Positions 159 to 62,074 are shown, counted from the first letter of the stretch. The stretch is 64,000 nucleotides of DNA from Heptranchias perlo (GCF_035084215.1 NC_090325.1:51212001-51276000), one strand, 5' to 3'. The notes: generated by a model not told the origin, from the sequence alone. Numbers and translations are program-made.

Positions 159-340
159 GCAACTCCTTTCGATAATTCTCGTGACCATATGAACAGCAGC
201 TGGCTACAGGAACAGGCAGATAAGGAGCAACGAATTAACAAGAAAAGGGCTACAATCCGGTGGTTCAAGGAGACTCAAGCTCGAAAAGTAGTTCAGAATG
301 GCACTTTTCCATGCTGGTTCCACGGAATGATTACAAGGCG
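159..340 (+). CDS. SH2 adaptor gene (SH2D7/HSH2D/SH2D2A-like), first visible coding exon
   Basis: ttttag acceptor, CG|gtgagt donor. Translates ATPFDNSRDHMNSSWLQEQ...IRWFKETQARKVVQNGTFPCWFHGMITR; the WFxETQ...QNG..P.WFHG.ITR motif is typical of this family. In-frame ATG at 189; an upstream exon outside the window is possible. Confidence 0.9.
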
Positions 341-931
341 GTGAGTCTGGTCTTCATTCTATTGCAGGGGTTTTTTAAAAATGTATTATAGTGATACCAT
401 GGTCAATTTTATTGATTGGACTTTGGAAAAGTGGTACCCAATGATTTTAGTACCTTGACGTTAAAAGTTCTTTAAATTTCCAAATTTGCATGTCATGAAA
501 ACCTGCATGAAGAGTTGGCTTTTACATCAGATGTTACTGTAATTAAACCTACACGGGGAAGCAAATCCCTGTTGTATGCACGCTTTCCCCATGTCCCAAC
601 CTGTTTACAGTAATAGTCTTAAGGTACTTGTCGGAGGGGAAAACACAATTTTAACAAGACCGAAAAGAAACTAACCCAGATAAATTAGAAAAATTGTAAC
701 TAAAATAATGGACAAATAATGGTATTGTTCAAACAGGAGATACTTAATACTGTCAAACCCATTAAAACAAACTAAACCTATCCCCACAAAAAGTAAAGGA
801 TGTGCAGCTATAGCTGGATTTCTTCAGATTAAAATCTTCAAAATTAAAATGATTGGAAGCACGTGATAATTCTAGGTCTAATAAAACAAAAGAAAATCTC
901 CCAGAGGCTAGTTTTGAGATTATTGCTCATT

Positions 932-962
<31 letters not shown>

Positions 963-963
963 G
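932..963. repeat. (TCTG)n/(TCTA)n microsatellite
   Basis: Directly visible. Confidence 0.9.
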
Positions 964-2024
964 CATAATATGCGTGCATGGTTAACGGAAGAGGACTGTA
1001 AATGACGTCACAAGGACAGAGACTGGTTAATAGATTGAGCCAATGAATCTCCAGTGAAATTTAATGCATAGACATGTGGGGGGAAGTTATCACAGTTATG
1101 AGCATAATTAAGATTCCAAACACACTTGCATGACACAGCATGATCTAAAAGCCAGAGGTAGGTCACAAATTGCAGCAGAGCCACTCACTGGCGAAAGTAT
1201 GGAACTACTGCTAAACCAATGCTAAGTGTGAGCTATTGTTTTAGCTGGTAATGCGACATGTTCACTTAACATTGTTAAGCCCTATCACAGCGCCACCTAC
1301 AGGCTTGTAGGGTACTGCATCGAATTCAGCAACCTACCTATCATTTTTTAAATATAATAGATTTCTACCAACAACAACGATGTCTCAGTATTAATTTACT
1401 TACTGACATACTGTATCTGATGCAGTGGGACTTAAGATTGCTTGTGTGTTTCCCCACACAATAGGGAATGGGTCCAAGTTCTTCTCCAGGGGAGGAAAGG
1501 AGGGAAAATCAGAGTCAGGCCAAACCCCAGGAACCTGTCTAAAATGAGGTGGTCAAATAATCTGGGAACAGATTGTGTGCATGTCTGTCCTCACAACGTT
1601 GAAATAAGGGCAATGGGAAAGGTGAAGATGAACAAAATCCATTTATAGGATAAAGAGTTTGAAATTCTGATGTTTTGAGTTATTCTTAAGTTTAAAAGTT
1701 GGACATACTGCGTGGCATTCTTTAAAACTTTATTTCCGAATCATTTAAGAATTAATTTGTTTGAGAAGAACTATCAAATTTTTTCTTTGTGTTTCCTTTG
1801 GATCCTCGAGGGCCAATAACCTCTTCCTAGGCCAATGGGAGTTGGGTGAGATGGGTGCGTGTTGCAGGGATGTAAGAGCAAGTCTGGCACAAAGTGACTG
1901 TCATATGATATTTGGTTTTAAATATCTCCCCTTCTAAGTTATTTTGGGTGTTTATCGGGCCTGTGTTTCAGTTTTATTTGGGAATGTCTAAAAATGATAT
2001 TTCTTTATACTCTATGATTTACAG

Positions 2025-2114
2025 AGAGGGTGAAGATTTGTTGGCAAACCAAGCTTTAGGCTGCTTCCTCATTCGTGTCAGTGGGAGTAGGGAAGGATAC
2101 ACACTGACTTTCAG
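2025..2114 (+). CDS. SH2 adaptor gene, SH2 exon with FLVR motif
   Basis: tttacag acceptor, AG|gtaac donor, 90 nt, phase 2-2. Translates EGEDLLANQALGCFLIRVSGSREGYTLTFR. Confidence 0.93.
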
Positions 2115-2739
2115 GTAACTTTCCTTTCCTATCTTTTTGCCAGTTAAAATCAGCAGCACTAAGTGCTTTGTTGCTAAAATTTACCAGTGTATAAATCTCC
2201 AGTTGGTGAAGCATCTGCTATACATAGTAAAGTCATCAAAAAATATTAAACAACAACACGAAAAACCATCCAAATGGAAACATTTTTGACTTGGGCAAGC
2301 TGATTATTCCAAAAAGTAGATTATTATCTCCTACAATTCCAGCTGCCACAGACCAACTTGACTCCTTTCAGTATGATAATGCAGTGCATCACTCTGGCCT
2401 AGTCAGAATATGCAGCAGCAAATTCATCACAACTTTAAAGTTTATTTATACTCATATTACCATATCTGAAATTCTCCTCTACTTAACATACCTTGCATGG
2501 TTTTACCCTCGCTCCCCCTCCTGCAGTAGGAAGTTGAGTTCTGGTTCTTAACATGTTCCTTTTTAAACTCTGATACTTTCATGGCCTTTCAAAAGTTTAC
2601 TTTTTTAGGCCAGCAGTACATAAATTTCCATTGAAACTTGAAGCATTATTGTGCACATGTAAGCACATATGTGGTGCTTCGGGACAAACCAAAGTAGCCA
2701 ATGTGCAGTCCATCTTGCCCACCCACATGTACTTAAATC

Positions 2740-7010: not shown

Positions 7011-7011
7011 C

Positions 7012-7265: not shown

Positions 7266-7269
7266 TTGT

Positions 7270-11545: not shown

Positions 11546-11584
11546 GAACCCAAAGGTTCATGCTCAGGTGAGGCACTGAGAATT

Positions 11585-14502: not shown

Positions 14503-14668
14503 AGGTACAGATCGATGCAGACACTATATGATTGAAATGCAGCCAAATGGGAAGTATGTGATATTGGGAGAGGACAGGGCCCACCCATCACTACCAGACT
14601 TAGTGGAGTATTACAAAACCGTTGGAATTCAACCATTCATGGAAGTCCTTACCATACCTTGTGGGCAG
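14503..14668 (+). CDS. SH2 adaptor gene, C-terminal half of SH2 domain
   Basis: cttcag acceptor, CAG|gtaagt donor, 166 nt. Translates GTDRCRHYMIEMQPNGKYVILGEDRAHPSLPDLVEYYKTVGIQPFMEVLTIPCGQ. Confidence 0.93.
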
Positions 14669-16895: not shown

Positions 16896-17249
16896 AAATG
16901 TGACAGTAAGACAGATTATGAAGAACTCAGAAACTTTACAATGAAAATCAACCTGCAAGCAAGCACAAATTCTGACATTGTGGCTGATGACTCGATTCAT
17001 GATCGAGTGCACAATGAGCTATCTAAGCTTTTTGTACCACCTGAGTCACAGTTGTCAATGCAGCCTCAAGTGCCACCAGTCATGAGAAAGATCACAGACA
17101 GGAAGCTTCAGGCTGTTGCTTCAGGGGTAACAACTTCAATTAATTCAGAGAATTGGATTGAGGAGGAACATCAAGGAAGCAAACGTACGTTCCCAAGACT
17201 GTACCCATCAATACGTTTAGCAATGAGGGAGATTCAGCAAGTTCATGAG
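16896..17249 (+). CDS. SH2 adaptor gene, post-SH2 exon
   Basis: ccctcctag acceptor, GAG|gtaagc donor, 354 nt open and in phase 0. Translates KCDSKTDYEELRNFTMKIN...PQVPPVMRK...REIQQVHE. Confidence 0.85.
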
Positions 17250-19096: not shown

Positions 19097-19219
19097 AAAC
19101 AGCCTGCATTTCACAGCCCTAATAGTGGAGAGGAAGCTGTGCCAGAACTCCCCCCAAAACAGTTTAAGGAGCGTCACAAACCTCGATTATTTGCAACAGA
19201 ATACTACACTAAGAAATAA
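19097..19219 (+). CDS. SH2 adaptor gene, terminal coding exon
   Basis: ttgtctttatag acceptor, phase 0. Translates KQPAFHSPNSGEEAVPELPPKQFKERHKPRLFATEYYTKK* (TAA 19217-19219). AATAAA at 19231 and ATTAAA at 20632 are candidate polyA signals. Confidence 0.75.
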   Translation, partial: KQPAFHSPNSGEEAVPELPPKQFKERHKPRLFATEYYTKK

Positions 19220-23652: not shown

Positions 23653-23691
<39 letters not shown>

Positions 23692-23778: not shown

Positions 23779-23982
23779 ATGATGTGGAGATGCCGGTGAT
23801 GGACTGGGGTGGACAAATGTAAGGACTTGCACAACACCAGGTTATAGTCCAACAGTTTTATTTTAAATCACAAGCTTTCGGAGCTTACCTCCTTCGTCAC
23901 CTGACGAAGGAGGAAAGCTCCGAAAGCTTGTGATTTAAAATAAAACTGTTGGACTATAACCTGATGTTGTGCAAGTCCTTAC
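23779..23982. mobile_element. Penelope-like palindromic terminal insertion with hammerhead motif
   Basis: Target duplication (C)TGATTGTAGTT; 81-bp inverted arms 23819-23982 with 2 mismatches; TCAC-CTGACGA-A-GGAG-gaaag-CTCC-GAAA-GCTT-GTGA at 23897-23933. Confidence 0.78.
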
Positions 23983-35434: not shown

Positions 35435-37295
35435 ATGGAGCAGGCCAGAGGCAAGGCTGCTCCAAGGTTCACTGACTCCTCACTCCAGGTGCTGCTCGAT
35501 GGGGTCAGGAGGAGGAGGAGGGAAGTGTTTTTCCCATCAGACGGGAGGAAGTGTCCTGCCTCTGTCACCAAGAAGTTCTGGCTCGAGGTGGCTGAGGAGG
35601 TCAGCAGCAGCAGCAATGTCGCCCGAACCTGGGTCCAGTGCAGGAAGTGCATTAATGACCTAACCAGGTCAGCCAAAGTGAGTACACTTACGCATTCTCC
35701 CACACTCCGTCTTCCACATCACCTCCACCACCACACAACTCCTTCTGCAATGCCACCACAACATTCTTGCATCACTCCTCACATCCACTCAACCATCATC
35801 TACACCTTGCCTGCACTTATTCACTGCCCCAGTTCCCATTTGAACCCTACCACGCAACCCAATCCTCATACAATCTCATGGCTATGTCTCACACGCACCC
35901 TCCCATGCATCTCCCTCACGCTCACCCCCACCCACACCAATGCATGCAGCGGCTCACCATGCAACCATCACTCAATCACGCCTCTCTGTGTTTTGCCTTG
36001 ATAGGAGAAGAGATGCCAGAATGCCCAGGAGAGGGCAAGGACCGGAGGGGGCCCGCGTCACCAGGTGGTCCTAACGGACGCAGAGCAGCAGGCACTAGAA
36101 ATAAGCCACACGCTGGAGTGCCTGTCCATGGCGGACGCCGAGACTGGGAGCGCACAAGCGGCTGGTGACTGAAATCTAACACTCAGCACTCATGATAGCG
36201 AATGATCTTAACATCCCTTGGCATCTGCAGCACCTCAACATCTGTCTACATGCTTAATATTGATTTCTGTTCTCAACCGCCATGACTGCGGAGGGTGATT
36301 CCTCAGAGGACCTGCCGGCCTCTGAGGGGGCATCGTCACATCTGAGCCAGCCATCCACCAACGCAGACATACACACACCTCGGTGGGTCCCCGTCCTCAC
36401 TTATTTGGGCTTGCACATGGTGAGTCACCACGCACATGTGAGCATGAGCAGACCTTGGTGGTGGGCAGCCATGGAGAGTCCGCGTCGGTGGGAGCACTCT
36501 TCTCCAGGCTGTGCTCAGCTGGACCCAGATGCTGAATCCTGGGGGCCAGCCGTGAAAAGGAGAGTCATCAAGGGGCAGCAGCACATTGCCAACATACTGG
36601 AACAGTTGCCACGCGCACTCTCCACAATCGCGCAGAGGATGGAGGAGTCCAATTCCTGCATGAGTGGAATGGTGGCACAGGTACAGGAGGGTATCTCCGA
36701 GATAGTGTCACAGGGACGTGAAGGTATCTCTGAGATAGTGTCGCAGGTAGGTGTGGGAACGTCTGCGATGGAGGGAAGGTTAGCCTCCATCGAGCTTCAA
36801 GCATGGCTCAACAATGAGTCCATTCAGGCCCTGACAACGGCCGTTCGGATTCAGGATGAGCAACATTCTGCCGCCTTAAACAAACTGACAGATATGTTAC
36901 AACTGGCCTTCCAAGGCTTCACACAAGTCCTCCAAACTGTCGTCCAGCAGGGTGGAAGGAGTGATGTGGGCCTGGCCCAGGAGAGGGATGATGGCGAAAG
37001 GGGACATGGAAGTGGGGACGCCACTCAAAGCGCTCCCACGTCTCACCCGTTGCCTCCCTCTCAACCAGTACCCGCAATGCTGCCTCCTCTCCAGGTGGTC
37101 GAGTCTGCTCCTGCACAGGTGCAGGTGGAGCAGTCTTTGGAGGGGCCCTCACAAGCACCGAAACCCAGAGGGCGTCCACGCAAAGCATCTCATCGGTCAG
37201 GGTATGGACAAAAGCAACCTGCCACTACCTCTGTTGAAGCCACAGGGGTAGCACCACGTAGGGGTTCCCGTAAACATAAGGCGAAGGTTTTGTGA
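35435..37295 (+). CDS. Harbinger Myb/SANT-like DNA-binding protein (exons 35435-35677, 36005-36164, about 36282-37295)
   Basis: MEQARGKAAPRFTDSSLQVLLDGV...FWLEVAEEV...RTWVQCRKCINDL then EKRCQNAQERARTGGGP, with GT/AG sites; 337-codon open last exon. TATTTAAA at 35378. The exon 3 acceptor appears to be missing. Confidence 0.8.
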
Positions 37296-37449
37296 GCACA
37301 AAGGGGATGCACAAGGGTGTATGACGGAATGTCATGTTTTTCATTTAGATTTGTTTGTTTTGCAAACCACATTAAATGTTGTTCTCACCACTATTGCCAC
37401 GTCTTTTCAAATCTTGTCTGGTTTGTGCAATAATTCCCTTTCCTGAGGA

Positions 37450-37962
37450 TCACCCTGAAGACCCACACCTGATGCCACCCATTGTGTCACTGCAGAGTGG
37501 GTGTAGGTGTATTTGCAGGGCTCTTTTGCGCAAACGACAGAGAGACGCTGGCGATGTCCCCGGTGACACCCTGGAAGGATGCGGAGGAGAACTTGTTGAG
37601 GGCAGTGGTGACTTCGACAGCGACAGGTAAGAAGATGGTGCTCGGGCCAGCCGGGAGCAGCTCAGCATCAAGGAGGCTGCAGATGTCCACGACTACATGT
37701 TGAATGACTCTGAGCCTCTGTGTGCACTGCTCCTCAGAGAGGTCCAGGAAGCTGAGCCTCTGTCTGTAGACCCTGTGGCGAGGGTAGTGCCTTCTGCGAC
37801 GCATCTCTCTCTGCGGTTGCCCTCCCTCCTGCTGTGCAGGTGGATGTGTCACAGCACTGTGTTGTGGAGCTCCACGTGTCAGAGGTGGACGGCGAGGGTG
37901 GTGATGCTGTTCGTCCTCCAATGAAGTCATGACTGCAGCTATGGCGGCCCCCATCTGCAAGA
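37450..37962 (-). pseudogene. Harbinger transposase N-terminal remnant
   Basis: RRRRHYPRHRVYRQRLSFLDLSEEQCTQRLR...LPVAVEVTTALNKFSSASFQGVTGDIASVS resembles the HARBI1-like HTH region; the catalytic DDE domain is absent. Confidence 0.8.
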
Positions 37963-39759
37963 TGTACATTTGAGGGGGTCTGCACACCGGGGTTGATGTT
38001 CCAAGTTGGTGAATTTTATTGTTAGGAGGAGGGTGGTGGAGGCCATACTTTGTCCAAAGTGACAGAGTGGCCTCCTGCAATGAGTGAGGGTCTTCTTCCA
38101 CCTGTCAAATGGACCTTTGCAGCTCCCACAGGCTGGTGGCTGCAACACGTCTGTTTCAACTGGGAGTGTTTCCCCCAGTACGGGAAATACGCTCAGTTGA
38201 GATAAAAATCCCACCCCTCCTAAAATATCATGTCAATCAGGTCTCCAAAGGACCTGAACTATCTGATTCATTGATTTAAAGTCGGCAGGAGTCCCGCATG
38301 CAGGGGCTGCGCACGCATCTAAGCACGTCATTGGGCGGGCTCCGGACCCGCCCCAGGAATCCCCAATTTTAGGAGGCCCCCCCACCCAACACGAATGTAC
38401 CCGCTCAGCCATCTGAAAATTGACGCCTACGTGTCACAATCAGTGGGATCGGGCTCCTACAAAGCCTATATCTGTTCATCGTGGAACATACTGCAGCTCT
38501 GTTTTGCAGCCTACAACCATCTGTTGTGTCTGAATTGAATTTAAAGCCATATATATGATAAATGAATTAAATGAGATGTCGGAAAATCCTCTGATTTTGT
38601 TGTTTAGTAGATAATGAATAGAGCAGCACCACAAGAATGATTAGGACTTAGGACAGACATCTATAGGAATCCTCATCACTGAGAGTTTATATAAGGAGTA
38701 ACTGAGCTATACAGAGCAGGAAGGTCGCAGGCTCGATCTGTGCTGAGTTAACTAACCTCAATTGGGACAGCATTAGAGCTACTACAGTTGGCCTCGTGCC
38801 CTTGAGTTAGTTTTGGGACACCCAGTCAGGGTTCCCACTCCTGATTATTATCCAGTGCTCCTCCTGGATACTGAATGGGAGCAGAATTGAGCTTAGCCAT
38901 GGTGCTCGTCACTACAATTGGGTGAGGTGCCTGAGCAAGGAGCTGATGCCTTCAAGAAGGGAATGATAAAAATTGGTGACAGAAAAGAACCGTTACTGTC
39001 TGATGTATTTGAAACATTTTAAATTAATAAGAAAAAGGACAGATTTTTATGTTTATAGAAAGAATTGGAGCTGCTTCTTGTTTTGTACAAATCAATAAAG
39101 TTAATACAAAATACCAACAGTAAACAAAGCATTACATATTTCTGGCTCCAAACCTTTCTCCTAAACACTGTCCTCACCTGGAACTCTATCCGTCATACCA
39201 ATAAGTTCAGTCACACAATTAACTACAAACTACTGAACCAGAGTTTTTGGAACATGTTTTAGGTCGTGGAATGTCAAATGTTGCAACCCAGCACAAATCC
39301 CCACATTATTGTGTGTTTCAACAACACCAGGATCAATTTTAAGGCACCCTGTCCTATTTACATTTGCAACTAAATGCTCTCTATTATTATGATATCGAAT
39401 ATATGAAAAGTGTATAAAAAGGGGGTAAGGACCAGTCATTTTTGAAACACTGCACATCAATTTGTTCTCCCTAATGTATGAATTACAAGGCTGGTGGACC
39501 ATTAATTTTCAATGGAACTTGTTACTCAAAAGGTCTGACACAAAGGAGCCTCTAACAGTCCAAACCTTTTTTTTGATTATATGTAGGTTTGCTTCCATTC
39601 CTCATGCAACCCCCTAATTTGATTTTGATACCAGATAGCCGACAATAGACTGATCAATGAACATAGCTTTCAATTAATAGCAAAGATCAATACTTCATTT
39701 CATTTGCAAAAGATTTATTCCTTCTGTTGCCATACTGCACTCACCATTTGAACACTCAC

Positions 39760-41946: not shown

Positions 41947-44900
41947 GAGTTCAGACAAGGCACAGCACTAACACTACCGAGTTCAGAGAGCAGACAGCGC
42001 TAACACAATGAGTTCAGAGAACGCACGGCGCTGACACCACCGAGTTCAGAGAACGCACGGCGCTGACACCACCGAGTTCAGAGAACACACAGCGCCGACA
42101 CCAAGTTCAGAGAACGCACGGCGCCGACACCACCGAGTTCAGAGAACGCACGGCGCCGACACCGAGTTCAGAGAACACACAGCGCCGACACCACCGAGTT
42201 CAGAGAACGCACGGCGCCGACACCACCGAGTTCAGAGAACACATGGCGCCGACACAGAGTTCAGAGAACGCACGGTGCCGACACCGAGTTCAGAGAACAC
42301 ACAACGCCGACACCACCGAGTTCAGAGAACACACAGCGCCGACACCACCGAGTTCAGAGAACGCACGCCGCTGACACCACCGAGTTCAGAGAACACACAG
42401 CGCCGACACCACCGAGTTCAGAGAACGCACGGCGCTGACACCACCGAGTTCAGAGAACACACAGCGCCGACACCACCGAGTTCAGAGAACGCACGGCGCT
42501 GACACCACCGAGTTCAGAGAACGCACGGCGCTGACACCACCGAGTTCAGAGAACACACAGCGCCGACACCGAGTTCAGAGAACACACAGCGCCGACACCA
42601 CCGAGTTCAGAGAACACACAGCGCCGACACCACCGAGTTCAGAGAACACACAGCGCCGACACCACCGAGTTCAGAGAACACACGGCGCCGACACAGAGTT
42701 CAGAGAACGCACGGTGCCGACACCGAGTTCAGAGAACACACAACGCCGACACCACCGAGTTCAGAGAACACACAGCGCCGACACCACCGAGTTCAGAGAA
42801 CGCACGGCGCCGACACCACCGAGTTCAGAGAACACACAGCGCCGACACCACCGAGTTCAGAGAACACACAGCGCCGACACCACCGAGTTCAGAGAACGCA
42901 CGGTGCCGACACCGAGTTCAGAGAACACACAACGCCGACACCACCGAGTTCAGAGAACACACGGCGCCGACACCACCGAGTTCAGAGAACACACGGCGCC
43001 GACACCACCGAGTTCAGAGAACACACGGCGCCGACACCACCGAGTTCAGAGAACACACGGCGCCGACACCACCGAGTTCAGAGAAAACACAGCGCCGACA
43101 CCACCGAGTTCAGAGAACACACGGCGCCGACACCACCGAGTTCAGAGAACGCACGGCGCCGACACCGAGTTCAGAGAACGCACGGCGCCGACACCGAGTT
43201 CAGAGAACGCACGGCGCCGACACCGAGTTCAGAGAACGCACGGCGCCGACACCGAGTTCAGAGAACACACAGCGCCGACACCACCGAGTTCAGAGAACAC
43301 ACAGCGCCGACACCACCGAGTTCAGAGAACACACGGCGCCGACACCACCGAGTTCAGAGAACGCACGGCGCCGACACCGAGTTCAGAGAACGCACGGCGC
43401 CGACACCGAGTTCAGAGAACGCACAGCGCTGACACCACCGAGTTCAGAGAACGCACGGCGCTGACACCAAGTTCAGAGAACGCACGGCGCTGACACCAAG
43501 TTCAGAGAACGCACGGCGCTGACACCACCGAGTTCAGAGAACGCACAGCGCCGACACAGAGTTCAGAGAACGCACGGTGCCGACACCGAGTTCAGAGAAC
43601 ACACAACGCCGACACCACCGAGTTCAGAGAACGCACGGCACTGACACCACCGAGTTCAGAGAACACACGGCGCCGACACCACCGAGTTAAGAGAACGCAC
43701 GGCGCTGACACCACCGAGTTCAGAGAACAAACAGCGCCGACACCACCGAGTTCAGAGAACACACAGCGCCGACACCACCGAGTTCAGAGAACACACGGCG
43801 CCGACACCACCGAGTTCAGAGAACACACGGCGCCGACACAGAGTTCAGAGAACGCACGGTGCCGACACTGAGTTCAGAGAACACAAAACGCCGACACCAC
43901 CGAGTTCGGAGAACGCACAGCGCCGACACCACCGAGTTCGGAGAACACACAACGCCGACACCACCGAGTTCAGAGAACACACAGCGCCGACACCACCGAG
44001 TTCAGAGAACACACAGCGCCGACACCACCGAGTTCAGAGAACACACAGCGCCGACACCACCGAGTTCAGAGAACACACAGCGCCGACACCACCGAGTTCA
44101 GAGAACGCACGGCGCCGACACCGAGTTCAGAGAACGCACAGCGCTGACACCACCGAGTTCAGAGAACGCACGGCGCTGACACCAAGTTCAGAGAACGCAC
44201 GGCGCTGACACCAAGTTCAGAGAACGCACGGCGCTGACACCACCGAGTTCAGAGAACGCACAGCGCCGACACCGAGTTCAGAGAACGCACAGCGCTGACA
44301 CCACCGAGTTCAGAGAACGCACGGCGCTGACACCAAGTTCAGAGAACGCACGGCGCTGACACCAAGTTCAGAGAACGCACGGCGCTGACACCACCGAGTT
44401 CAGAGAACGCACAGCGCCGACACCGAGTTCAGAGAACGCACAGCGCTGACACCACCGAGTTCAGAGAACGCACGGCGCCGACACCACCGAGTTCAGAGAA
44501 CACACGGCGCCGACACAGAGTTCAGAGAACGCACGGTGCCGACACCACCGAGTTCGGAGAACACACAACGCCGACACCACCGAGTTCAGAGAACACACAG
44601 CGCCGACACCACCGAGTTCAGAGAACACACAGCGCCGACACCACCGAGTTCAGAGAACACACAGCGCCGACACCACCGAGTTCAGAGAACGCACGGCGCC
44701 GACACCGAGTTCAGAGAACACACAGCGCTGACACCACCGAGTTCAGAGAACGCACGGCGCTGACACCAAGTTCAGAGAACGCACGGCGCTGACACCAAGT
44801 TCAGAGAACGCACGGCGCTGACACCAAGTTCAGAGAACGCACGGCGCTGACACCACCGAGTTCAGAGAACGCACAGCGCCGACACCGAGTTCAGAGAACG

Positions 44901-46485
44901 CACAGCGCTGACACCACCGAGTTCAGAGAACGCACGGCGCTGACACCAAGTTCAGAGAACGCACGGCGCTGACACCAAGTTCAGAGAACGCACGGCGCTG
45001 ACACCACCGAGTTCAGAGAACACACGGCGCCGACACCGAGTTCAGAGAACACACGGCGCCGACACCACCGAGTTCGGAGAACGCACGGCGCCGACACCAC
45101 CGAGTTCAGAGAACACACAGCGCCGACACCACCGAGTTCAGAGAACGCACGGCGATGACACCACCGAGTTCGGAGAACGCACAGCGCTGACACCACCGAG
45201 TTCAGAGAACACACAGCGCCGACACCACCGAGTTCGGAGAACGCACAGCGCTGACACCACCGAGTTCAGAGAACACACAGCGCCGACACCACCGAGTTCA
45301 GAGAACACACGGCGCCGACACCACCGAGTTCAGAGAACACACAGCGCCGACACCACCGAGTTCAGAGAACACACAGCGCCGACACCACCGAGTTCGGAGA
45401 ACACACGGCGCCGACACCACCGAGTTCAGAGAACACACGGCGCCGACACCACCGAGTTCAGAGAACACACGGCGCCGACACCACTGAGTTCGGAGAACGC
45501 ACGGCGCCGACACCACCGAGTTCGGAGAACGCACGGCGCCGACACCACCGAGTTCAGAGAACTCACAGCGCCGACACCACCGAGTTCAGAGAACGTACGG
45601 CGCCGACACCACCGAGTTCAGAGAACGCACGGCGCCGACACCGCCTCGGGTTCAGAGAACGCACGGCGCCGACACCGCCCCGAGTTCAGAGAACGCACGG
45701 CGCCGACACCGCCCCGAGTTCAGAGAACGCACGGCGCCGACACCGCCCCGAGTTCAGAGAACGCACGGCGCCGACACCGCCCCGAGTTCAGAGAACGCAC
45801 GGCGCCGACACCGCCCCGAGTTCAGAGAACGCACGGCGCCGACACCGCCCCGAGTTCAGAGAACGCACGGCGCCGACACCGCCCCGAGTTCAGAGAACGC
45901 ACGGCGCCGACACCGCCCCGAGTTCAGAGAACGCACGGCGCCGACACCGCCCCGAGTTCAGAGAACGCACGGCGCCGACACCGCCTCGAGTTCAGAGAAC
46001 GCACGGCGATGACATCCCCCGAGTTCGGGGAACGTACGGTGCCGACACCACCTCGAGTTCAGAGAACGCACGGCGATGACAGCCCCCGAGTTCAGAGAAC
46101 GCACGGCGCCGACACCGCCCCGAGTTCAGAGAACGCACGGCGCCGACACCGCCCCGAGTTCAGAGAACGCACGGCGCCGACACCGCCCCGAGTTCAGAGA
46201 ACGCACGGCGCCGACACCGCCCCGAGTTCAGAGAACGCACGGCGCCGACACCGCCCCGAGTTCAGAGAACGCACGGCGCCGACACCGCCTCGAGTTCAGA
46301 GAACGCACGGCGATGACATCCCCCGAGTTCGGGGAACGTACGGTGCCGACACCACCTCGAGTTCAGAGAACGCACGGCGATGACAGCCCCCGAGTTCGGG
46401 GAACGTACGGTGCCGACACCACCCCGAGTTCAGAGAACGCACGGCGATGACAGCCCCCGAGTTCGGGGAACGTACGGTGCCGACA
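41947..46485. repeat. Minisatellite, about 4.5 kb, 29/32/34-bp units GAGTTCAGAGAACRCACRGCGCYGACACC(ACC|GCCCC)
   Basis: Roughly 140 head-to-tail units are directly visible, with degenerate units at the left edge. Confidence 0.97.
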
Positions 46486-49346: not shown

Positions 49347-51344
49347 AGAATCATGGAATGGTCACAGCACAGAAGGAGGGCATTCGGCCCGTCGAGCTCG
49401 TGCCAGCTCTCCAAGAGCAGTCCAGCTAGTCCCACTCCCCTGCCCTTTCCCCGTAGTCATGGAAATTTTTTCCCCTCAAGTACTTATCCAATTCCTGTTT
49501 GAAAGCCATGATTGAATCTGTCTCCACCACCCTCTCAAACAGTGCATTTCAGATCCTAACCACTTGCTGTGTAAAAAAGTTTTTCCTCATGTTGCCTTTG
49601 GTTCTTTTGCCAATCATTTAAGTCTAAGTCCTCAGATTCTTGACCCTTCTGCCAATGGGAACAGTTTCACTCTATCTACTCTGTCTAGATCTTTTGTGAT
49701 TTTGGATACCTCTATCAAATCTCCTCTCAACCTTCTCTACTCTAAGGAGATCAACCCCAGCTTCTCCAGTCTATCCATGTAACTGAAGTCCTTCATCCCT
49801 GGAACCATTCTAGTAACTCCCTCTAAGGCCTTCACATCCTTCTGAAAGTACAGTGCCCAGAATTGGTCACAATACTCCAGTTGTGGTTGAACCAGTGTTT
49901 TATAAAGGTGCATCATCACTTCCCTGCTTTTGTACTCTATGCCTCCATTTATAAAGCCCAGGATCCTGTATGCTTTTTTAACTGCTTTCTCAACCTGCCC
50001 TGCCACCTTCAAAGATTTGTGCACATATACTCCCCGGTCTCTCTGTTCCTGCACCACTTTTAGAATTGTACACTTTAGTTTATATTGCCCCTCCTCGTTC
50101 TTCCTATCAAAATGTATCACTTCACACTTTTCTGCATTAAATTTCATCTGCCACGTGTTCGCCCATTCCACCAGCCTGTCTATGTCATCTTGAAGTCTAT
50201 CATTATCCTCCTCACTTACCCCATATTTCCATTTTCACTTCCCCTCTGAACTTTCCATATTCAGCCTGGTTCTTATTTGTGTTATCAATCTGAAATCTGT
50301 CATACGCCCCTTTTTTCTGCTTCATCTTACTCTATCTCTTTCATCATCTAGGGAGCTCTGGCTTTGGTTGCCCTACCTTTCCCCCTCGTGGGAATGTACC
50401 TTGACTGTGCCTGAACCATTACTTCTTTAAAGGCCGTCCATTGTTCAATTACAGTTTTGCCTGACAATCTTTGATTTGAATTTACCCAGGCCAGATCCGT
50501 TCTCAACACACTGAAATTGGTTCTCCTCCAATTGAGTATTTTTACTCTAGATTGTTCCTTGTCCTTTTCCATAGCTAATCTAAACCTTATGATACTATGA
50601 TCGCTGTTCCTTAAATGTTCCCCCATTGACACTTGCTCCACTTGGCCCACTTCATTCCCCAGAACCAGATCCAGCAATACCTCCTTCCTCGTTGGGCCGG
50701 AAACATACTGGTCAAGAAAGATCTCCTGAACACACTTCAAAAATTCCTCCCCCTCTTTGCCCTTTACACTTTAACTATCCCAGTCTATATTAGGGTAGTT
50801 GAAGTTCCTCATTATCACTACTCTATGGCTCTTGCACCTCTCTGTAATTTCCCTGCAAATTTGCTCCTCTATATTCTTCCCACTAGTTGGTGGCCTATAG
50901 AATACCCCCAGTAGTGTAATGGCGCCTCTATTGTTTCTTAACTCTAACCAAATAGATTGTGTCCTTGACCCCTCCAGGACATCCTCTCTCTCCAGCACTG
51001 CAATATTCTCCTTAATCAATACTGCCATCCCCCCCGCCTTTCTTTCCTTCTCTATCTATCTTGATCACCTTGGGGGGAAAAATTAGATAAGGGTCCGTTC
51101 TGGGCGATGGTACCACCCCGTGCCCAACGGATCCCTATGCAAGCAGCATGTGAACTTCATGCTGCCTGATACTTACCATGAAATCTCCATGCAGCAAGCG
51201 CAGCCCTCTCTGCTGAGAGGCTGCACGGAGAATGAGGAAGTTGGAAATGGGGCGTGGACAGCGCATGTCATCAGCAGCCTGCATTACTTAAAGGTGCAGG
51301 GACATTTCGAATGGCAGATACACAGCCAAGTAGGAGAAGGGAAA

Positions 51345-53164
51345 ATGGCATCACGAGTAGCTGCACCAGCAAGAGAGCGGGCACCAAGATTCTCGGACGA
51401 TGCTCTGGAGGCCCTAGTGGAAGGTGTGGACCACCCGCATGGTGTCCGAGACCGTCCAGACTACAGCTGCGTAGGCATTGGCAGGCTGGCACAGGAGGTG
51501 AATGCCAGGAGCATTGCACCACGCACGTGGGTGCAGTGCCGCAAGAAATTTAATGATTTGACACGAGTGGTCAAGGTGAGTGAATGCAAGTGTCAAGTGG
51601 CACATCCTACCAACTGCAACAATACTCCATGCACGACACCTCCCGTCACCCACCCACCCACCAACAAACACTACCCATCCATACGCAATGCTGCATCTTA
51701 CCCACACATTGCACACACTTGCAGGTCACACAACCACCACTCAAGTCACACAAACTGGGAACTATTTGACCATGACAGGCACATCACCCACACACCTTAC
51801 AGGACACTCACTGACACAGTGTCCTCTGTTTTGCAGGAGAAGGTGGCGTATAACAACCGGCAGCAGGAGGGACCTGAGGCTGGACGGGCATGTCTACACG
51901 TCTTCCCCCCCCCCCCCCCACCCCCGGCCCCAGAGGAGATGGTGCTGCACCCGTCACAACGTGCCACGCTGGAGGTCCCGGTCAAGGGGATCTCTCCATT
52001 TCTACTGCTCCTTTTCCTTTTCCACATCTCCCTCCTCCCATAATCTTTTCTGACTCACGTGCTGCACATGCTGCCAGCATGCACCTCTTACTTGCTTCTC
52101 TCCCCGCTCCACAACTCAACCTGTTTCCCTTTGTCATTGCAGATACCCAAGAACACGTGACGGCACAGGAGGAGGAGGAGGAGGAGGAGGAGGACGCTGA
52201 AGCCACACCGTGACTCGATCTGACACTTGCTTCCACCAGCTCAGAGACTGACACTGTGCGTCCTTTAGAGGTTAGGTTAGTGGAGGGATCTGCATGTGGT
52301 GAGACACCGAGCACAAGTGCACAGGAGCCGGGGCGGAGGGAACGGATATCACCAGAGCCAACTCACCGGAGGGTGAGGTCGCTCACTAGTTCTGCTGCAG
52401 AGGAGTCAGATGAGGACTTTGATGGGCCAGGCTACAGAAGACGGCTGATGGGCGTACACCACCAAATGCTTGGGGCACTGGAATGCCTGCCAGAAAGCCT
52501 GCGCATAATGAGAAGGGGCATGGAGCAGTCCAGCTCCAACTTGGCACAGGGCTTTGCGCAGAGCTTGGAGCCCATCCTTTCCAACATGGAACGGGTGGTC
52601 ACCTCCATCAGTGCACTTGTGGAACCCACCATGATGCAGCGTCTGATGACTGATGTCACAGCTTCCATTGCAGTACAAACATCTGTCGTCCAAGGTCTGA
52701 CTGCTGCATTTGCAGCTCAGACTGCTGTCTTGGAAGCTCGGACTGCTGCTATCATGGCTCTGGGGACCACTGCGGAACGGGGCTTCCTGGGCATCACAGC
52801 ACTCCAGCAATCCGTTCACCAGCCGATTACCAGGATTGCTGAGGCGCCACCCCGGGAGAGTGGCAGTGGCGCCATGGCAGTCGGACCTGCTGTACTTTCT
52901 CAGGACGACAGTATTCCTGCTCCCACCCCTGCCACTCCGCCAGTGCCCCTGTTGTTGCCTCTCAGCCAGCTAGGCCAGACTGCTGCAGCCCATGCTGAGA
53001 TGATGCAGTCTGAAGCCGGGCCCTCCAGGCCCAGAGCTGCTCAAGGTCGTCCTCCAAGGCCATCTGGACGTTCCTCCATTGAAGGCCAGCAACCTTCCAC
53101 CACCCATGCTCCAGCCACTGGGGAAGCACCTTGTAGGAGCACTAGGATAGTTAAAGGCACATGA
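51345..53164 (+). pseudogene. Harbinger Myb/SANT-like gene, degenerate and spliced
   Basis: MASRVAAPARERAPRFSDDALEALVEGV...RTWVQCRKKFNDLTRVVK|gtgagt; ttgcag|EKVAYN; 302-aa ORF at 52256-53164. Disruptions in exons 1-3. TACTTAAA at 51285. Confidence 0.78.
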
Positions 53165-53517
53165 ACAACAGGCACTAAGGGAATGTACAAGGGTGAATAG
53201 TTCTGTTATGTTTGCATATTTTCATTTATTAATCCATAAATGAGAGTTTGATTTTGCATTTGATGGTGGTTTTTATTCATGCAATGAGCTGAGAGGGAAT
53301 CCAATGTGTAATCAGATGGAGGGCGATTTGATTGTCTTGTGGGAGGAGAAAGGTGGGAAATGTTGGACTGTTGGTGAGTTGGGGGATGTAGTTCCAATTA
53401 TTGATAGCGGGCACGGATCTGGCGAGCATGCTCAGCCCTTGCAGACAAGGCGTGTGGTTCCTGTTGCAACCTTGCATCTTCCTCCACATCCTCTTCCGGC
53501 TCCACCCCCTCCTCCTG

Positions 53518-54617
53518 CTACTCCTCAGCCTCTTCCTCCTCCTGCTCCTCTGCCTCTTCCTCCTCAGCCTCCTCCTCCTCCTTCACCTCTGGCTCAGGAT
53601 CTTCTCCAGTCATTGGTGGCAAAGGCTGGTCCCTCATGATGGCAAGGTTGTGCAGCATGCAGCAGACCACCAAGAATCTGCCCAACCGCTCAGGGGAGTA
53701 CTGCAGGGCTTCTCCAGACCGGTCTAGGCAGCAGAAGCCTTGTTTGAGGAGGCCTATCGTGCGCTCCACGATGTTGCGTGCGGCAGCATGGCTCTCATTA
53801 TAGGCCTGCTGTGCACGTGTGCATGGATTCCTGAACGGTGTCATGAGCCACGTCATGAGGGGATAGCCCTTGTCACCTAGTAGCCAGCCTTTGACTTGCC
53901 GAGTCAGATGAAAGATAGCTGGCACATTGGACTGCCGCATGACGAAGGCATCGTGACTGCTCCCAGGGTTGCAGGCATCGATTTCCAAGATGTGATGCGT
54001 GTGGTCGCACACCAGCTGCATGTTGAGGGAATGGAAGCCCTTTCGGTTGACTAAGAGAGCCGAGTTGATGTGAAGGGCACGCAGGGCAATATGTGTGCAG
54101 TCCATGGCACCCTGCATCATGGGGAAGCCAGCAATGTGGGCGAACCCCCGTGCTCACTCGTTCTGATTGTCTCTGTGGAGAGGGAAGATGATGAACCTGT
54201 TCCTCATGTGGTACAGTGCGTCTGTGACCTCCCTTATGCAGCAGTGCACCGCATTCTGCGAGATGTTGCACGTCGCCAGCAGAGGCCTGAAATGCTGCTG
54301 AGCCGTAGAAATTCAGTGTCACGGTGACCTTCACAGTCACAGGCAATGCTGTCCTCGCCCTGCTCTGAGGCTGCAGTTGTGGCCACACCAGTTGACAGAT
54401 CTTGGTGACAGCTCAGCCATTGCATGCAATCCTCCTCGGTCATGTTGAGGTAAGAAAATTGGTCCTGGAAGGCCCTCATTGGGTAGGGCCTTCTGCTCAG
54501 TGCCCTGCGCCTCCTCGTCCTCCGTCTCCTCCCAGCTTGACCTGCTGGGCGTAGCCTCTCTGCATGCTCCCAGTCGTGCTCAATGCCCAACAGGAGTCCT
54601 AGCAGACCACCCATGGT
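53518..54617 (-). pseudogene. Harbinger transposase (HARBI1-like DDE), frameshifted
   Basis: GAMDCTHI, NRKGFHSLNMQLVCD, PGSSHDAF, WLLGDKGYP, RNIVERTIGLLK and an acidic tail; the N-terminal part is split over several frames. Confidence 0.9.
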
Positions 54618-56429
54618 TGGCAGGAGTGTTGTTCCACCAGGTTTGTCACTTTCCGACCCGTAAGGCAATACCTGCCAAAGCACTCTCAAAAGTAGTGTAG
54701 GAACTCTCAATAAGAATAGGGAGCTTTAAAAAACACTTGCTGCTCCTCCAGCAGCCAGTAGCAATAATCCAGCAACTAACCTGCAACACCTGCATGGCCC
54801 TTTAAGTAGCGCTGGTGGGGGGTCCTTCAGGCACTGTAAGAAATGTTTAGATGGTCGGGGATAAGACTGTGCGTTGAGTTGAGTATTAAGGTCCAAAATT
54901 GTGTGTATCACTTTAAATCAGCGTTGCACACTGATTGCAGCCATTTTCTCCCTATTTTACATGCTTCCAGCATTCGGGATTAGCCATCTTGGATGTCAGA
55001 GAGACCGTGTAGCGCCGAAACAACGGGCGCTACATGGCCCAATTTAGCGCCCCTCGTATCCAGGAATATTTAGTACCCAATCCTGCCCTTTTTTGAGCCA
55101 GGTCTCCATTATCGCCACGATATCATTCCCATGTGGCTAATTGCACCTGCAGCTCACCAACGCTTCGTGCGTTTACACACATGCACTCTAAACCTATCTT
55201 AGATCTTCTTGTATTCTTGCTTAATCTGATCCCACCTAATACCGTACTATTTTTTACTCTAGTGCTATCTGTCTCTCCCAATCCTTTGTGCACCTTGTTT
55301 CTCCTTTCTAATGCTACATCCTGGTGCCCATCCCCCTGCCAATTTAATTTAAACCCTCCCCCACAGCACTAGTGAACCTCCCCATGAGGACATTGCTCCC
55401 AGCTCTGTTGAGGTGTAACCCATCCGGCCTGCATAGGTCTCACCTCCCCCAGAACTGATCCCAATTCCCCAGGAATCTAAAGCCCTCCCTCCTGCACTAT
55501 CTCTCCAGCCACACATTCATCTGCTCTATCCTCCTATTTCTATACTCACTAGCGTGTGACACAGGGAGTAATCCGGAGATTGCTACCTTTGAGGTCCTGC
55601 TTGTTAATCTCTTTCCTAACTCCTTAAAATCTGCCTGCAGGACCTCATCCCTCTTTCTACCTATGTCATTGGAATGCTGCGATCTGATTGGTTGAGGGGA
55701 GAGTGTGATCCTCTCGCTTCTCCCAGCTTCACTTGAATAGAAATTCTTTCTAACTGTAATTTCTACGCTAATGTATTTTCAACTTCTAAGATGCAGCTCA
55801 GCCAAGGGGCTCACATTTGCTTAAGGTGCCTTTAGTTGATTCCATTTGTGAACCAAAATGCATGTGTCAGAAATTTGATATAGAAGATAATTGTCATGCT
55901 TCATTTACTCAGCCTTTGCTACCAGATCAAGATCTACGATAATATGCTAGAGACTTATGAGCAGTTCTTATACTCCAATGAGGCTGTCTAAGACAGGTAA
56001 TCCAAATCTGTTGAGGGTATCTGGTAAAATGTAAAATCATAGTCTACCTCTGACTTATACAGCATATAATTAATGGGAATCAGTAAGATGAATAGGAATA
56101 TCTCCTTGAAGGCTAGCTTGTCAATTTAACTTTGCAGTGAGGTTGCTGTCAATGAGAACAGATTGCCACAGTGCTTCGGGCACTGGAGCCCCATAGTTTC
56201 AGGCATGGAGGCCTGAGGCCTGATCTGTGCCTAATCAAAGTATCACTGGAGTTGTTAATGTGCTCATTTGCATGCAGCTATGAATATTCTTGTGCATGTA
56301 CCCCTATTTGCAGGTTCTGGAGGAGAAGAAGAAGGATCAGAAGAGGCAAGGCAGACAGATGCAATTACACTATATACACTCCTTTCAAACTACTCTTCCA
56401 ACTTTCCAAAACTCCCATGCTGATACACC

Positions 56430-58470: not shown

Positions 58471-58480
58471 GCAAGACATA

Positions 58481-59263
58481 GGGGCAGAAATCGCTTGCAA
58501 AATGACGGTGAGCTCAACAGCACTCTCCGTTGTTAGTGGAGAATTGAAGGAGCAAGTTCCGGCGTTTGCACATGCGCAGTGAAACGTGGAAATCTGGAAC
58601 TTGCTCCTACTGGTTCACCGGCGATATGACAGCTTCGAATTAAAGGGACATCGCATGCTGCAATCGGAGAAGTCATTGAAAAAGTGCAATCTTTCTTATT
58701 TCCCAGCTGGAAAGTAACTAATTACGCCACAAAACAGTTACGCTTAAAAATACAGGTCTAAACTAAGTTTTAACAGCACGGTTAGTCTTAATGACTGCCA
58801 AACAACTAAAAATTAACTTTTAAAAATGTGGAGTCTCATTATTCCTTATTTTAATAGTTTTTGGTCATAAAAAATAATTAAATTAAAAGATTAATTTTGT
58901 TTTACTTTTCCCTTCTGTCTCTTTTATTTAATTCAATTATTTCTTACCCTCTCTTTATTCGCTGTCTATAACTGTTTTTACATTGATTTTAATGTTATAC
59001 CTTTCACTTGCTGGTTTAACGTACCAAGACGGCAGAGACAGTGAACGCAGCCTGTCAAAAATGCGGCAATCTGATTGGTCGAGGCCAGAGATCGCTCCTC
59101 TCACTTCTCCCAGGGTCCTAGACCCGGCTGAACTGACGCTGGGCTCTCTTCCGCTTCCTATTCAAGGAAGTGGCCGAAGAAAAGGCTGCGGTAAGTTAGT
59201 GGATTAGTATAAATCTATGGAGCGGCGAGCAGTTGGTTCGCCGCTCCAAGCAATTTTTGCCCC
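58481..59263. mobile_element. Harbinger-type MITE (about 780 bp)
   Basis: Terminal inverted repeats GGGGCAGAAATCGC / (rc) GGGGCAAAAATTGC (12/14); flanks ATA/ATT; no coding capacity. Confidence 0.75.
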
Positions 59264-59434
59264 ATTGTAGTGTGTTACACTGAAGTGCTGCATTGTGATG
59301 GAGTGGATGAGTGAAGAGTTAAAGAATGAAAAGCAAAGCATGCTAGTCCTGAGCTTGGGAAAGGCCTCCAACTTTGGAGGCCCCCACCATTCCCTCTATT
59401 GCCTCCGTGCCCATGATCTCTGTAGTCCTAATCT

Positions 59435-61203
59435 TGGGAGGAGGAGGCTCTGTAAACATCCCCATCCTCAATGATGGCGGAGTCCAGCAGATGAGTGCAA
59501 AAGACAAGGCTGAAGCGTTTGCAACCATCTTCAGCCAGATGTGCCGAGTGGATGATCCATCTCAGCCTCCTCCCGATATCCCCACCATCACACAAGCCAG
59601 TCTTCAGCCAATTCGATTCACTCCATGTGATATCAAGAAACGGCTGAGTGTACTGGATACGGCAAAGGCTATGGGCCCTGACAACATCCCGGCTGTAATG
59701 CTGAAGACTTGTGCTCCAGAACTAGCCGCGCCTCTCGCCAAACTGTTCCAGTATAGCTACAAAACTGGCATCTACCCAACAATGTGGAAAATTGCCCAGG
59801 TATGTCCTGTCCACAAAAAGCAGGACAAATCCAATCCAGCCAATTACCGCTCCATCAGTCTACTCTCAATCATCAGCAAAGTGAAGGAAGGTGTCGTCGA
59901 CAGTGCTATCAAGTGGCACTTACTCACCAATAACCTGCTCATCGATGTTCAGTTTGGGTTCCACCAGGACCACTCGGCTCCAGACCGCATTACAGCCTTG
60001 GTCCAAACATGGACAAAAGAGCTGAATTCCAGAGGTGAGGTGAGAGTGACTGCCCTTGACATCAAGGCAGCATTTGACCGAGTGTGGCACCAAGGAGCCC
60101 TAGTAAAATTGAAGTCAATGGGAATCAGGGGGAAATCTCTCCAGTGGCTGGAGTCATACCAAGCACATACCTAGTGCTTGTTGGAGGCCAATCATCTCAG
60201 CCCCAGGACATTGCTGCAGGAGTTCCTCAGGGCAGTGTCCTAGGCCCAACCATCTTCAGCTGCTTCATCAATGACCTTCCCTCCATCATAAGGTCAGAAA
60301 TGGGGATGTTCGCTGATGATTGCACAGTGTTCGGTTCCATTCGCAACCCCTCAGATAATGAAGCTGCTCATTCCCGCTTGCAACAAGACCTGGACAACAT
60401 CCAGGCTTGGGCTAATAAGTGGCAAGTAACATTCGTGCCAGGCAATGACCATCTCCAACAAGAAAGAGTCTAACCACCTTCCCTTGACATTCAATGGCAT
60501 TACCATCACCAAATCCCCCACCATCAACATCCTGGGGGTTACCATTGACCAGAAAATTAACTGGGCCGGCCATATAAATACTGTGGCTACAAGAGCAGGT
60601 CAGAGGCTGGGTATTCTGCAGCGAGTGACTCGCTTCCTGACTCCCCAAAGCCTTTCCACCATCCATCACACTCCTAACTTGTGCCTTATAGAATACTCTC
60701 CACTTGCCTGGATGAGCGCAGTTCCAACAACACTCAAGAAGCTCGACACTATCCAGGACAAAGCAGCCTGCTTGATTGGCACCCCTTCCACCACCCTAAA
60801 CATTCACTCCCTTCACTACCAGCGCACTGTGGCTTCAGTGTGTACCATCCACAGGATGCACTGCAGCAACTCGCCAAGGCTTCTTCGACAGCACCTCCCA
60901 AACCCGCGACCTCTACCACCTAGAAGGACAAGGGCAGCAGGCACATGGGAACAACACCACCTGCATGTTCCCCTCCAAGTCACACACCATCCCAAATTGG
61001 AAATATATCGCCGTTCCTTCATCGTCGCTGGGTCAAAATCGTGGAACTCCCTACCTAGCAGCACTGTGGGAGAACCTTCACCACATGGACTGCAGCGGTT
61101 CAAGAAGGCGGCTCACCACCACCTTCTCAAGGGCAATTAGGGATGGGTAATAAATGCTGGCCTCGCCAGCGACGCCCACATCCCATCAACGAATAAAAAA
61201 AAA
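59435..61203 (+). mobile_element. Non-LTR retrotransposon (CR1/L2 group, distinct family) with polyA tail
   Basis: [43 protein letters not shown]; ends AATAAAAAAAAA. Confidence 0.92.
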
Positions 61204-62039
61204 TAAGGAGCTTTGGTGGCTCTCCCTCTTGTCTGTTTGCACTGCCTCTTATTATTTCCAGACCTCTCCTACAAGCAGATGTAAAAAGGACATATGGTGG
61301 AAAGAAGATGGTGAGAGAATATGACTGTCACCCAAGTACCAAGAACAGTAGCCATCTTTAATGAGTTTGTGAACATGTGGAATTAATAATCTTGTGCTGG
61401 CATACTAGTTGGTACTTGTTACTTGCTGCATTTAATGAATGATGCAGTCAGCTCTTTGATATGGTGAGGCTACACAGTGCAATGCACAAACATGAGCATG
61501 TCTGTGTGTTTAGAAAAATTAACATTTGCCAGAATTTACTTCATTCTCCCTCTGTGATGCTGTACCAAACTTTATACTGAAGAGCAATGAAGAAGCTTGA
61601 CAAACAACCTATTAAGATGTTGCTGCATGTTCGTACACTTATTTGGACAACTTTGCATAGGTCAAAAAAATGACTTTGTCACCTGGTCCCAGCTTTGGAC
61701 CATAGATAAGACTGTGTTTATGCCGTCAGTTGCCACCATCCATGCTGCTCTGGCTGTAATCTTTATTGCAGAGTGAACTTTTTTCCAACCAGGGCCACCA
61801 TTCAGGAGGATAGTGACAATGCACTCACACATTTGATGTGATTTATGCTGATCACCATGTCCCTCATGAGGAGTTTGTGGCATTTGCTGTTATCGATTTA
61901 TTTTTAGTTTACTTTAAATGGTTTACATCACCATTAAAATAGCGGAGAGAGGAATTTAACATAACTGTGTTAAACATTTGTATGATAATATTGCTCCCAA
62001 TAATTTTTAGGCATTTATGAATCACATGCTTACACTTAC

Positions 62040-62074
62040 CTCAGAATTTCTTTCCTTGTGAAGACAGTACAATC
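62040..62074 (-). CDS. CIB2/CIB3-like, exon 2
   Basis: 35 nt, tttttaaag acceptor, AG|gtaagt donor. Translates DCTVFTRKEIL(R). The 35/112/148/196/22-nt exons splice in frame to 170 aa plus stop. Confidence 0.92.

Follow-up and report, generated by a model that had tools for sequence, protein, structure and literature searches.

A 64,000-nt stretch of Heptranchias perlo DNA (the window) was analysed, in which the features of interest extend from position 159 to position 62074. It holds the 3′ parts of two convergent genes, an SH2-bearing gene on the plus strand and a CIB gene on the minus strand, with stop codons approximately 7.5 kb apart. Each gene has five exons in the window, all of them bounded by AG and GT and with open frames. 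The original prediction had assigned this interval to a pair of genes, and two convergent genes do span it; the 12 motifs that it had named were all present in frame at the expected places. The identities of the genes required revision: the plus-strand gene is a class-XXVIII myosin (myosin 28), and the CIB, for which and for its elasmobranch clade we use the name CIB-X, is neither CIB2 nor CIB3. The exons are listed below.

159-340, plus strand: internal myosin-28 exon bounded by AG/GT, encoding the end of a Pro-rich linker, the WFxETQ helix that precedes the SH2 domain, and the SH2 start (residue 804 onward of the H. perlo myosin P0421; tblastn 92% against a Heterodontus myosin)
2025-2114, plus strand: myosin-28 exon, SH2 core with the phosphotyrosine-binding arginine motif
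14503-14668, plus strand: myosin-28 exon, C-terminal half of the SH2 domain (Pfam SH2)
16896-17249, plus strand: myosin-28 exon, post-SH2 tail with a helix conserved from shark to bird, without a Pfam family
19097-19219, plus strand: last coding exon of myosin 28 with a TAA stop, AATAAA at 19231
26714-26693, minus strand: CIB-X exon 6, the last coding exon, with a TGA stop
31244-31049, minus strand: CIB-X exon 5, EF-hands 3 and 4, eight of the eight listed Ca2+ ligands present
39907-39760, minus strand: CIB-X exon 4, carrying the clade-specific D93N at a TMC1 contact
40874-40763, minus strand: CIB-X exon 3, the most divergent exon
62074-62040, minus strand: CIB-X exon 2, 35 nt, intact, omitted from the RefSeq model P0001

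The five plus-strand exons encode 304 residues that are identical to residues 804-1107 of P0421, an H. perlo myosin of 1107 amino acids. The exon at 159-340 is internal, because it begins at an AG acceptor and the protein continues upstream of it; what had been taken for an SH2 adaptor is the C-terminal part of this myosin. P0421 contains Myosin_head (10-682) and SH2 (856-931) and no kinase family. Its P-loop and switch I/II motifs are intact. An IQ-like neck motif is located at approximately residue 703 (Pfam IQ is unmatched in P0421 and is listed for five bird orthologs), and a charged helix is present, its coiled coil having been assessed by eye only. Among the closest relatives of the third exon (14503-14668), at 69-80% identity, are the C-terminal ends of proteins called 'myosin-IIIb-like' that lack a kinase, from sturgeon, turtle, newt and frog. 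Searching with the newt tail gave 151 proteins, and all of the 120 listed had both Myosin_head and SH2 in the Pfam column. Among these 120 matches, myosin 28 is kept in many fishes, amphibians, turtles, crocodilians and birds, and, judging by source names, neither a mammal nor an acanthopterygian was present.

Odronitz and Kollmar (2007, PMC2375034) defined class XXVIII by a tail composed of IQ, a short coiled coil and SH2, and reported it from Nematostella, Xenopus, chicken and some fishes, with a loss in acanthopterygians; its origin has been placed in the holozoan ancestor (PMC5583752). The SH2 region of the window groups with Xenopus tropicalis and bird myosins with a support of 100/99. 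The plus-strand gene is a class-XXVIII myosin, of a type already described but misnamed in databases: the full-length proteins are labelled 'myosin-IIIa/IIIb', and tail fragments are labelled 'SH2D2A-like' or 'hematopoietic SH2'. A stand-alone SH2 adaptor (SH2D7, HSH2D or SH2D2A) was rejected, as the full protein has a motor and its SH2 falls in the myosin clade and not in the adaptor clades. Three bird and milkfish proteins, P0134, P0135 and P0137 (annotated as 'SH2D2A-like', 'hematopoietic SH2' or 'SH2 domain-containing'), are also myosin-28 tails; the SH2-adaptor names in these databases are unreliable. In skate, a gene with SH2 and Myosin_head is transcribed in the embryonic pectoral fin (baseMean 1174; PMC10115646 supplement).

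On the minus strand, the five exons give a 170-aa open frame with a terminal stop. Exon 1 was searched for within the 64-kb window and was not found; presumably, it lies beyond base 64000. Exon 5 is 100% identical to the H. perlo RefSeq protein P0001, located on a 198.6-Mb contig, and its best PDB matches scored 87 bits for CIB2, 75 for CIB3, 58 for CALM-1 and 39 for CIB1. The protein belongs to the CIB2/3 subfamily, as the EF3/EF4 ligands are kept and it is closer to CIB2/3 than to CIB1. Trees were calculated from 34, 25, 26 and 28 rows picked for taxon spread from approximately 140, with CIB1 and CIB4 not included. CIB-X formed a clade with a support of 100/100 under both LG+G4 and LG+C20 in the tree subsets. 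Its members come from 15 shark and ray species, where they carry the labels CIB2-like or CIB3-like, with none from other groups among the 140 rows. Over 170 columns, the window CIB shows 79-89% identity to the other members, and its identity to every CIB2, CIB3 and lamprey row is 59-68%.

Sharks also have distinct CIB2 and CIB3 proteins, each falling with its bony-vertebrate counterpart, and the CIB3 clade of sharks and bony vertebrates (100/99) leaves CIB-X out. Since CIB-X lies in neither clade and these distinct shark proteins exist, the pattern that would have refuted an extra copy is not the one observed. In approximately unbiased (AU) tests on 25 rows, CIB2 orthology was rejected whether CIB-X was joined to elasmobranch (p = 0.0006), chondrichthyan (p = 0.0013) or all gnathostome CIB2 (p = 0.026), and so was CIB3 orthology, with CIB-X joined to elasmobranch (p = 0.0017) or chondrichthyan CIB3 (p = 0.0025). 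A Thamnophis protein annotated as CIB2 (P0074) was found to group with CIB3.

The best tree sets CIB-X and CIB3 against CIB2 and cyclostomes (96/92; 92/91 under LG+C20), with CIB-X as the sister to all CIB3. After the inclusion of three distant outgroups, CIB-X and CIB3 were united in 858 and 891 of 1000 bootstraps (support 86/93 and 89/91), and CIB-X was joined to the outgroups alone in 42 and 0. These outgroups are three of the 12 loci from a metagenome scan, in which none of the 12 had a myosin neighbour; they are partial, with 110-144 of 187 positions filled, and one of them (L004) holds one spurious out-of-order piece of 18 residues. The trees, with these partial outgroup rows, place the duplication that gave rise to CIB-X before the shark/bony-fish split and after the invertebrates. 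As judged from its sequence, the window CIB is intact and is orthologous neither to CIB2 nor to CIB3, and its status as an additional paralog that predates the split of sharks from bony fishes is supported. The suggestion of an extra copy held for the CIB as such a paralog; its partner is a class-XXVIII myosin and not an SH2 adaptor. A loss in mammals understates the case of the CIB, seemingly missing in all bony vertebrates sampled; the myosin, by contrast, is kept in many of them.

The CIB motifs that had been read as intermediate are largely ancestral and do not form a mosaic. FTRKEI is present in 106 of 140 CIB rows, among them CIB2 of fish, reptiles and lamprey; of the other motifs taken as CIB3-like, KAYYAF is also found in lamprey and hagfish and DFNND in hagfish. 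Eight residues, D93N and Y171 among them, are fixed in CIB-X and absent from 27 compared CIB2, CIB3 and cyclostome rows. At least six of these eight are present in 22 of the 140 rows, all elasmobranch, while one other row has one and the remainder have none. The stem of the clade (0.30) is the longest among the main clades. CIB-X was not found in bony vertebrates or chimaera among the best 120 of 995 profile matches and cluster members; as its absence outside elasmobranchs rests on these best 120 of 995, a diverged ortholog may be missed. Callorhinchus has myosin 28, but no CIB-X was seen in it.

The two genes are linked well beyond H. perlo. CIB-X and the myosin are on a contig of the same size in all eight species for which both values were available (H. 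perlo, Narcine, Scyliorhinus torazame, two Mobula, Hemitrygon, Hypanus and Chiloscyllium punctatum); they have consecutive locus tags in C. punctatum and near-consecutive RefSeq numbers in Narcine. Shark CIB2 is on contigs of 16-27 Mb and shark CIB3 is on other contigs. From these results, a history of the locus may be proposed, which as a whole, together with the pair of class-XXVIII myosin and CIB-X and the functions suggested below, we consider fairly likely. In human, SH2D7 is adjacent to CIB2 and HSH2D to CIB3. The vertebrate ancestor would have had a pair of myosin 28 and CIB2/3, multiplied by the first (1R) and second (2R) rounds of whole-genome duplication. One 1R branch would have produced SH2D7-CIB2 and SH2D2A, the CIB of which was lost, and the other myosin 28-CIB-X and HSH2D-CIB3. 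Only the copy with CIB-X would have kept the motor, and CIB-X itself would have survived solely in sharks and rays. Our verdict is that CIB-X is an unrecognised, probable ohnolog of 2R origin.

Chromosome assignments are consistent with this history. Linkage group C is present in four copies, GGA10 and GGA25 (1R copy 1) and GGAZ and GGA28, the latter equal to LER29 (copy 2) (PMC10115646 SI Table 3), and a C-group (CLG-C) segment lies within skate LER1 (PMC10115646). Tables in the supplement of the same paper place skate Cib3 on Leri_29C and a gene with SH2 and Myosin_head on Leri_1C. Skate CIB-X is on a 170.1-Mb contig, and the longest scaffold given in PMC10115646 is 170.06 Mb. The location of skate CIB-X on LER1 and Cib3 on LER29 fits what is expected for 2R sisters. 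In 20 birds, myosin 28 is on contigs of 60-111 Mb, which are too large for chr25 (approximately 4 Mb, PMC9974502) or for the contigs of bird CIB2 (17-26 Mb).

The SH2 domains were analysed in trees of 81 of 150 matches (at least 100 of 131 query positions covered) and then of 39 chosen rows with 137 columns, without rows labelled SH2D4 or mammalian; a hemichordate myosin-SH2 and two further relatives served as the outgroup. Four vertebrate clades were obtained: myosin 28 (100/99), SH2D7 (100/99), HSH2D (94/84) and SH2D2A (82/85). SH2D7 and SH2D2A come out as sister clades (95/97, and 95/94 with the mixture model), in agreement with the pairing of GGA10 with GGA25. HSH2D, SH2D7 and SH2D2A formed one clade in 109 and 88 of 1000 bootstraps, and the AU test did not reject the union of myosin 28 with HSH2D (p = 0.45). 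A search of the ESM Atlas returned generic SH2 clusters only. These comparisons give good support to a common origin of the myosin tail and the adaptors, and a loss of the motor in the adaptors after genome duplication is favoured. Because the SH2 domains form a four-way vertebrate family, HSH2D, SH2D7 and SH2D2A are probably motor-less ohnologs of myosin 28.

Several points weigh against the proposed history. By assembly sizes, the bird myosin contigs would be chromosome Z, but chromosome 4 is similar in size. The predicted pair of myosin 28 and HSH2D was unrecovered, with 113 (LG+G4) and 126 (LG+C20) of 1000 bootstraps, and myosin 28 was instead joined to SH2D7 and SH2D2A in 736 and 762; a single clade of the three adaptors also passed the AU test (p = 0.28), so that both minority arrangements are compatible with the SH2 data. 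Nor did the AU test reject the union of CIB-X with cyclostomes (p = 0.09). Among the proteins listed, mostly cluster representatives, neither the CIB2 nor the CIB3 of H. perlo itself was seen, and no single species had all three CIBs. The comparison of paralogons was made at the level of whole chromosomes. The CLG-C piece of LER1 is tentatively assigned in PMC10115646 to the GGA25 copy and not to Z; however, skate chr34 and catshark chr30 are tabulated beside chicken chr25 in the same families (PMC13143021), which argues against LER1 being the GGA25 copy. In parts 19-20 of the PMC13143021 supplement, the Z-type genes tabulated are on skate chr3 and catshark chr8 and not on skate chr1. The Z member of the paralogon is split over two chromosomes in gar (PMC6354393), so that a split between LER1 and LER3 is possible.

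CIB2 and CIB3 belong to the mechanotransduction channel complex of hair cells, in which they are auxiliary subunits of TMC1/2. The residues of CIB2 tabulated for Ca2+ and TMC1 binding in bioRxiv 2024.07.24.604958 were compared with those of the window CIB-X, which keeps all eight Ca2+ ligands, all four residues of the TMC1-CR2 groove (F70, Y115, L135 and V148) and, at the CR1 site, D18, C19, T20, F78, D90, V97, L106 and Y110. Position 92 is L, as in CIB3, in place of V in the CIB2 list; position 93 is N in 11 of 11 CIB-X rows versus D in all 27 others; position 171 is Y. According to the same preprint, D93 of CIB2 forms a salt bridge with K110 of TMC1, and a D90 and D93 double mutant weakens CR1 binding. 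The myristoylation glycine G2 is found in seven of the 11 CIB-X rows, the rest having odd or missing N-termini, and exon 1 is absent from the window.

Such conservation suggests that CIB-X would be a myristoylated, membrane-tethered Ca2+ sensor that binds Ca2+ at EF3/EF4 and grips an amphipathic helix with its C-terminal groove, most likely as an auxiliary subunit of a TMC-family channel, in so far as a comparison of contact residues can tell. Its grip on the N-terminal (CR1) region of TMC would be weaker because of D93N. We infer that CIB-X is functional and holds a TMC-type helix, with the N-terminal and the Ca2+-gated C-terminal sites engaged differently; its partner may also be a protein other than TMC. 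Myosin 28, for its part, would be a motor on actin with a functional pocket for phosphotyrosine, and its SH2 domain could carry or anchor phosphotyrosine-bearing cargo. The one tie seen between the CIB-X and myosin 28 proteins is ancient linkage.

Other explanations of the CIB were considered. CIB-X might be a segmental or transposed duplicate of CIB3 that arose in an early jawed vertebrate after 2R, landed beside myosin 28 and was lost in bony fish. Its position as the sister to all CIB3 fits such an origin equally well, and the long stem of 0.30 suggests a relaxed constraint after duplication; still, a chance insertion would be needed beside a gene whose SH2 region shares its four-way family with the genes next to CIB2 and CIB3, on a chromosome that has a segment of the same ancestral linkage group, and the six-exon layout with introns kept means that CIB-X is not a retrocopy. 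We regard this origin as improbable. The least probable of all is a fast-evolving elasmobranch duplicate of CIB2 or CIB3 misplaced by a long-branch artefact. The restriction of CIB-X, so far, to elasmobranchs, with none in a chimaera that has myosin 28, and a stem exceeding those of the other main clades are what such an artefact would produce, but four placements of this kind were rejected (AU p 0.0006-0.0025), the topology was unchanged under the site-mixture model, and CIB-X is about equidistant (59-68%) from all CIB2 and CIB3 rows. Scarcely more credible is CIB-X as a dedicated light chain of myosin 28 and not a TMC subunit. It is an EF-hand protein whose TMC1-CR1 contact is altered, the myosin has an IQ-like neck at approximately residue 703, and the genes are linked in all eight species; yet myosin 28 is retained in bony vertebrates that yielded no CIB-X, and CIB2 and CIB3 are beside motor-less adaptors, so the linkage does not track the motor.

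The strongest competitor concerns the adaptors and leaves the CIB as proposed above: a motor-less adaptor could have split from myosin 28 in tandem before 1R, each copy of the locus later keeping one of the two. A single motor loss would then suffice, the clade of HSH2D, SH2D7 and SH2D2A withstood the AU test (p = 0.28), and P0219 (263 aa), placed in the trees beside myosin SH2s of the invertebrate type, may be an adaptor of this kind or a fragment. Against this, the adaptor clade had only the 109 and 88 of 1000 bootstraps given above, myosin 28 mostly nests among the adaptors, and four reciprocal gene losses would be required. We think this course of events unlikely, albeit a serious contender. 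The multiplication of a myosin 28-CIB2/3 pair by 1R and 2R, with later loss of the motor, is the history that we prefer.

The non-coding part of the locus is rich in repeats. A Harbinger/PIF-like element in CIB intron 2 (51087-54725) has a Myb/SANT-like ORF on the plus strand (weak) and a DDE_Tnp_4 transposase on the minus strand; a second Harbinger-like element is located in intron 4 (35285-38104), with a Myb/SANT-like ORF on the plus strand. The first exon of P0001 (51891-51813, minus strand) falls in a Harbinger-like transposon, and this model omits the conserved exon 2; its start probably reflects an annotation error or an alternative start driven by the transposon. Intron 2 also contains a 4.5-kb GC- and CpG-rich tandem array (41971-46485; 143 copies of a 32-bp unit, 90% match) approximately 1.1 kb from exon 3, which gives rise to long spurious ORFs. 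Between the two genes, at 23819-23982, there is a 164-bp near-perfect palindrome with 81-nt arms that are 98% complementary, similar to the inverted ends of a shark retroelement. The introns are filled with LINE reverse-transcriptase fragments, e.g. at 59353-61140 (RVT_1 match at 59353-60171), and many shorter ones.

Both proteins are already in public databases under misleading names, and class-XXVIII myosins have been described. Extra ohnologs kept in cartilaginous fish are also a known pattern, with 19 such genes reported in PMC10115646. A literature search, with most subscription journals and the online ohnolog database of PMC13450315 outside its scope, gave no publication that describes a third CIB2/3 gene or derives SH2D2A, HSH2D and SH2D7 from a myosin, and one supplement file of PMC13450315 contained no CIB or SH2D names. 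CIB-X is a natural variant in which all Ca2+ ligands are kept and one experimentally important TMC1 contact is changed, and it allows a direct test of which TMC contacts matter; it is also a candidate for a specialisation of the shark ear, lateral line or ampullae. The locus further suggests that three SH2 adaptors of mammals arose by loss of the motor domain, and it draws attention to a myosin that has been studied little and is mislabelled as myosin III. A bolder version is possible, which we rate as somewhat less likely than not: one myosin 28-CIB locus gave four copies, TSAd (SH2D2A), ALX (HSH2D) and SH2D7 became motor-less, and elasmobranchs alone kept an intact pair, with CIB-X as a third TMC subunit that has an altered N-terminal contact and tunes mechano- or electrosensory channels.

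Compared with known systems, the plus-strand gene resembles the class-XXVIII myosins in its kinase-less motor, IQ-like neck, short charged helix and C-terminal SH2 domain, and in having orthologs in Xenopus, birds and non-acanthopterygian fishes; no difference was found, and sharks are not listed in PMC2375034. HSH2D (ALX), SH2D7 and SH2D2A (TSAd) share with it the SH2 domain and the preceding WFxxTQ helix, as aligned, and possibly the exon borders around the second half of SH2, which read-through fragments suggest indirectly. They differ in lacking the motor (Pfam SH2 only in P0175, P0174 and P0217) and in forming three separate clades. The teleost 'CIB2-like' proteins are the nearest non-shark matches to exon 5 of the window. 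They were rejected as CIB-X orthologs, because they fall inside CIB2 and the union of otophysans with CIB-X is rejected by the AU test (p = 0.026), and they are probably copies from the teleost genome duplication; in otophysans, they are on contigs separate from the myosin in four of four cases (Electrophorus, Acnodon, Hoplias and Brachyhypopomus). In otophysans, electric knifefishes among them, a second CIB2 copy (P0011, P0019, P0026 and relatives) is retained that evolves fast and has a stem of 0.32. CIB3 and CIB2 themselves share with CIB-X the exon layout, the EF3/EF4 ligands, the CR2 groove and the residues of deafness sites (E64, F91, I123 and R186), and the best PDB matches of exon 5 are CIB2 and then CIB3. 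CIB-X differs from both in forming its own clade (100/100), in its location on a chromosome of 110-386 Mb, in having been seen solely in sharks and rays, and in having 27 acidic residues versus 32-35 in the last 170 amino acids.

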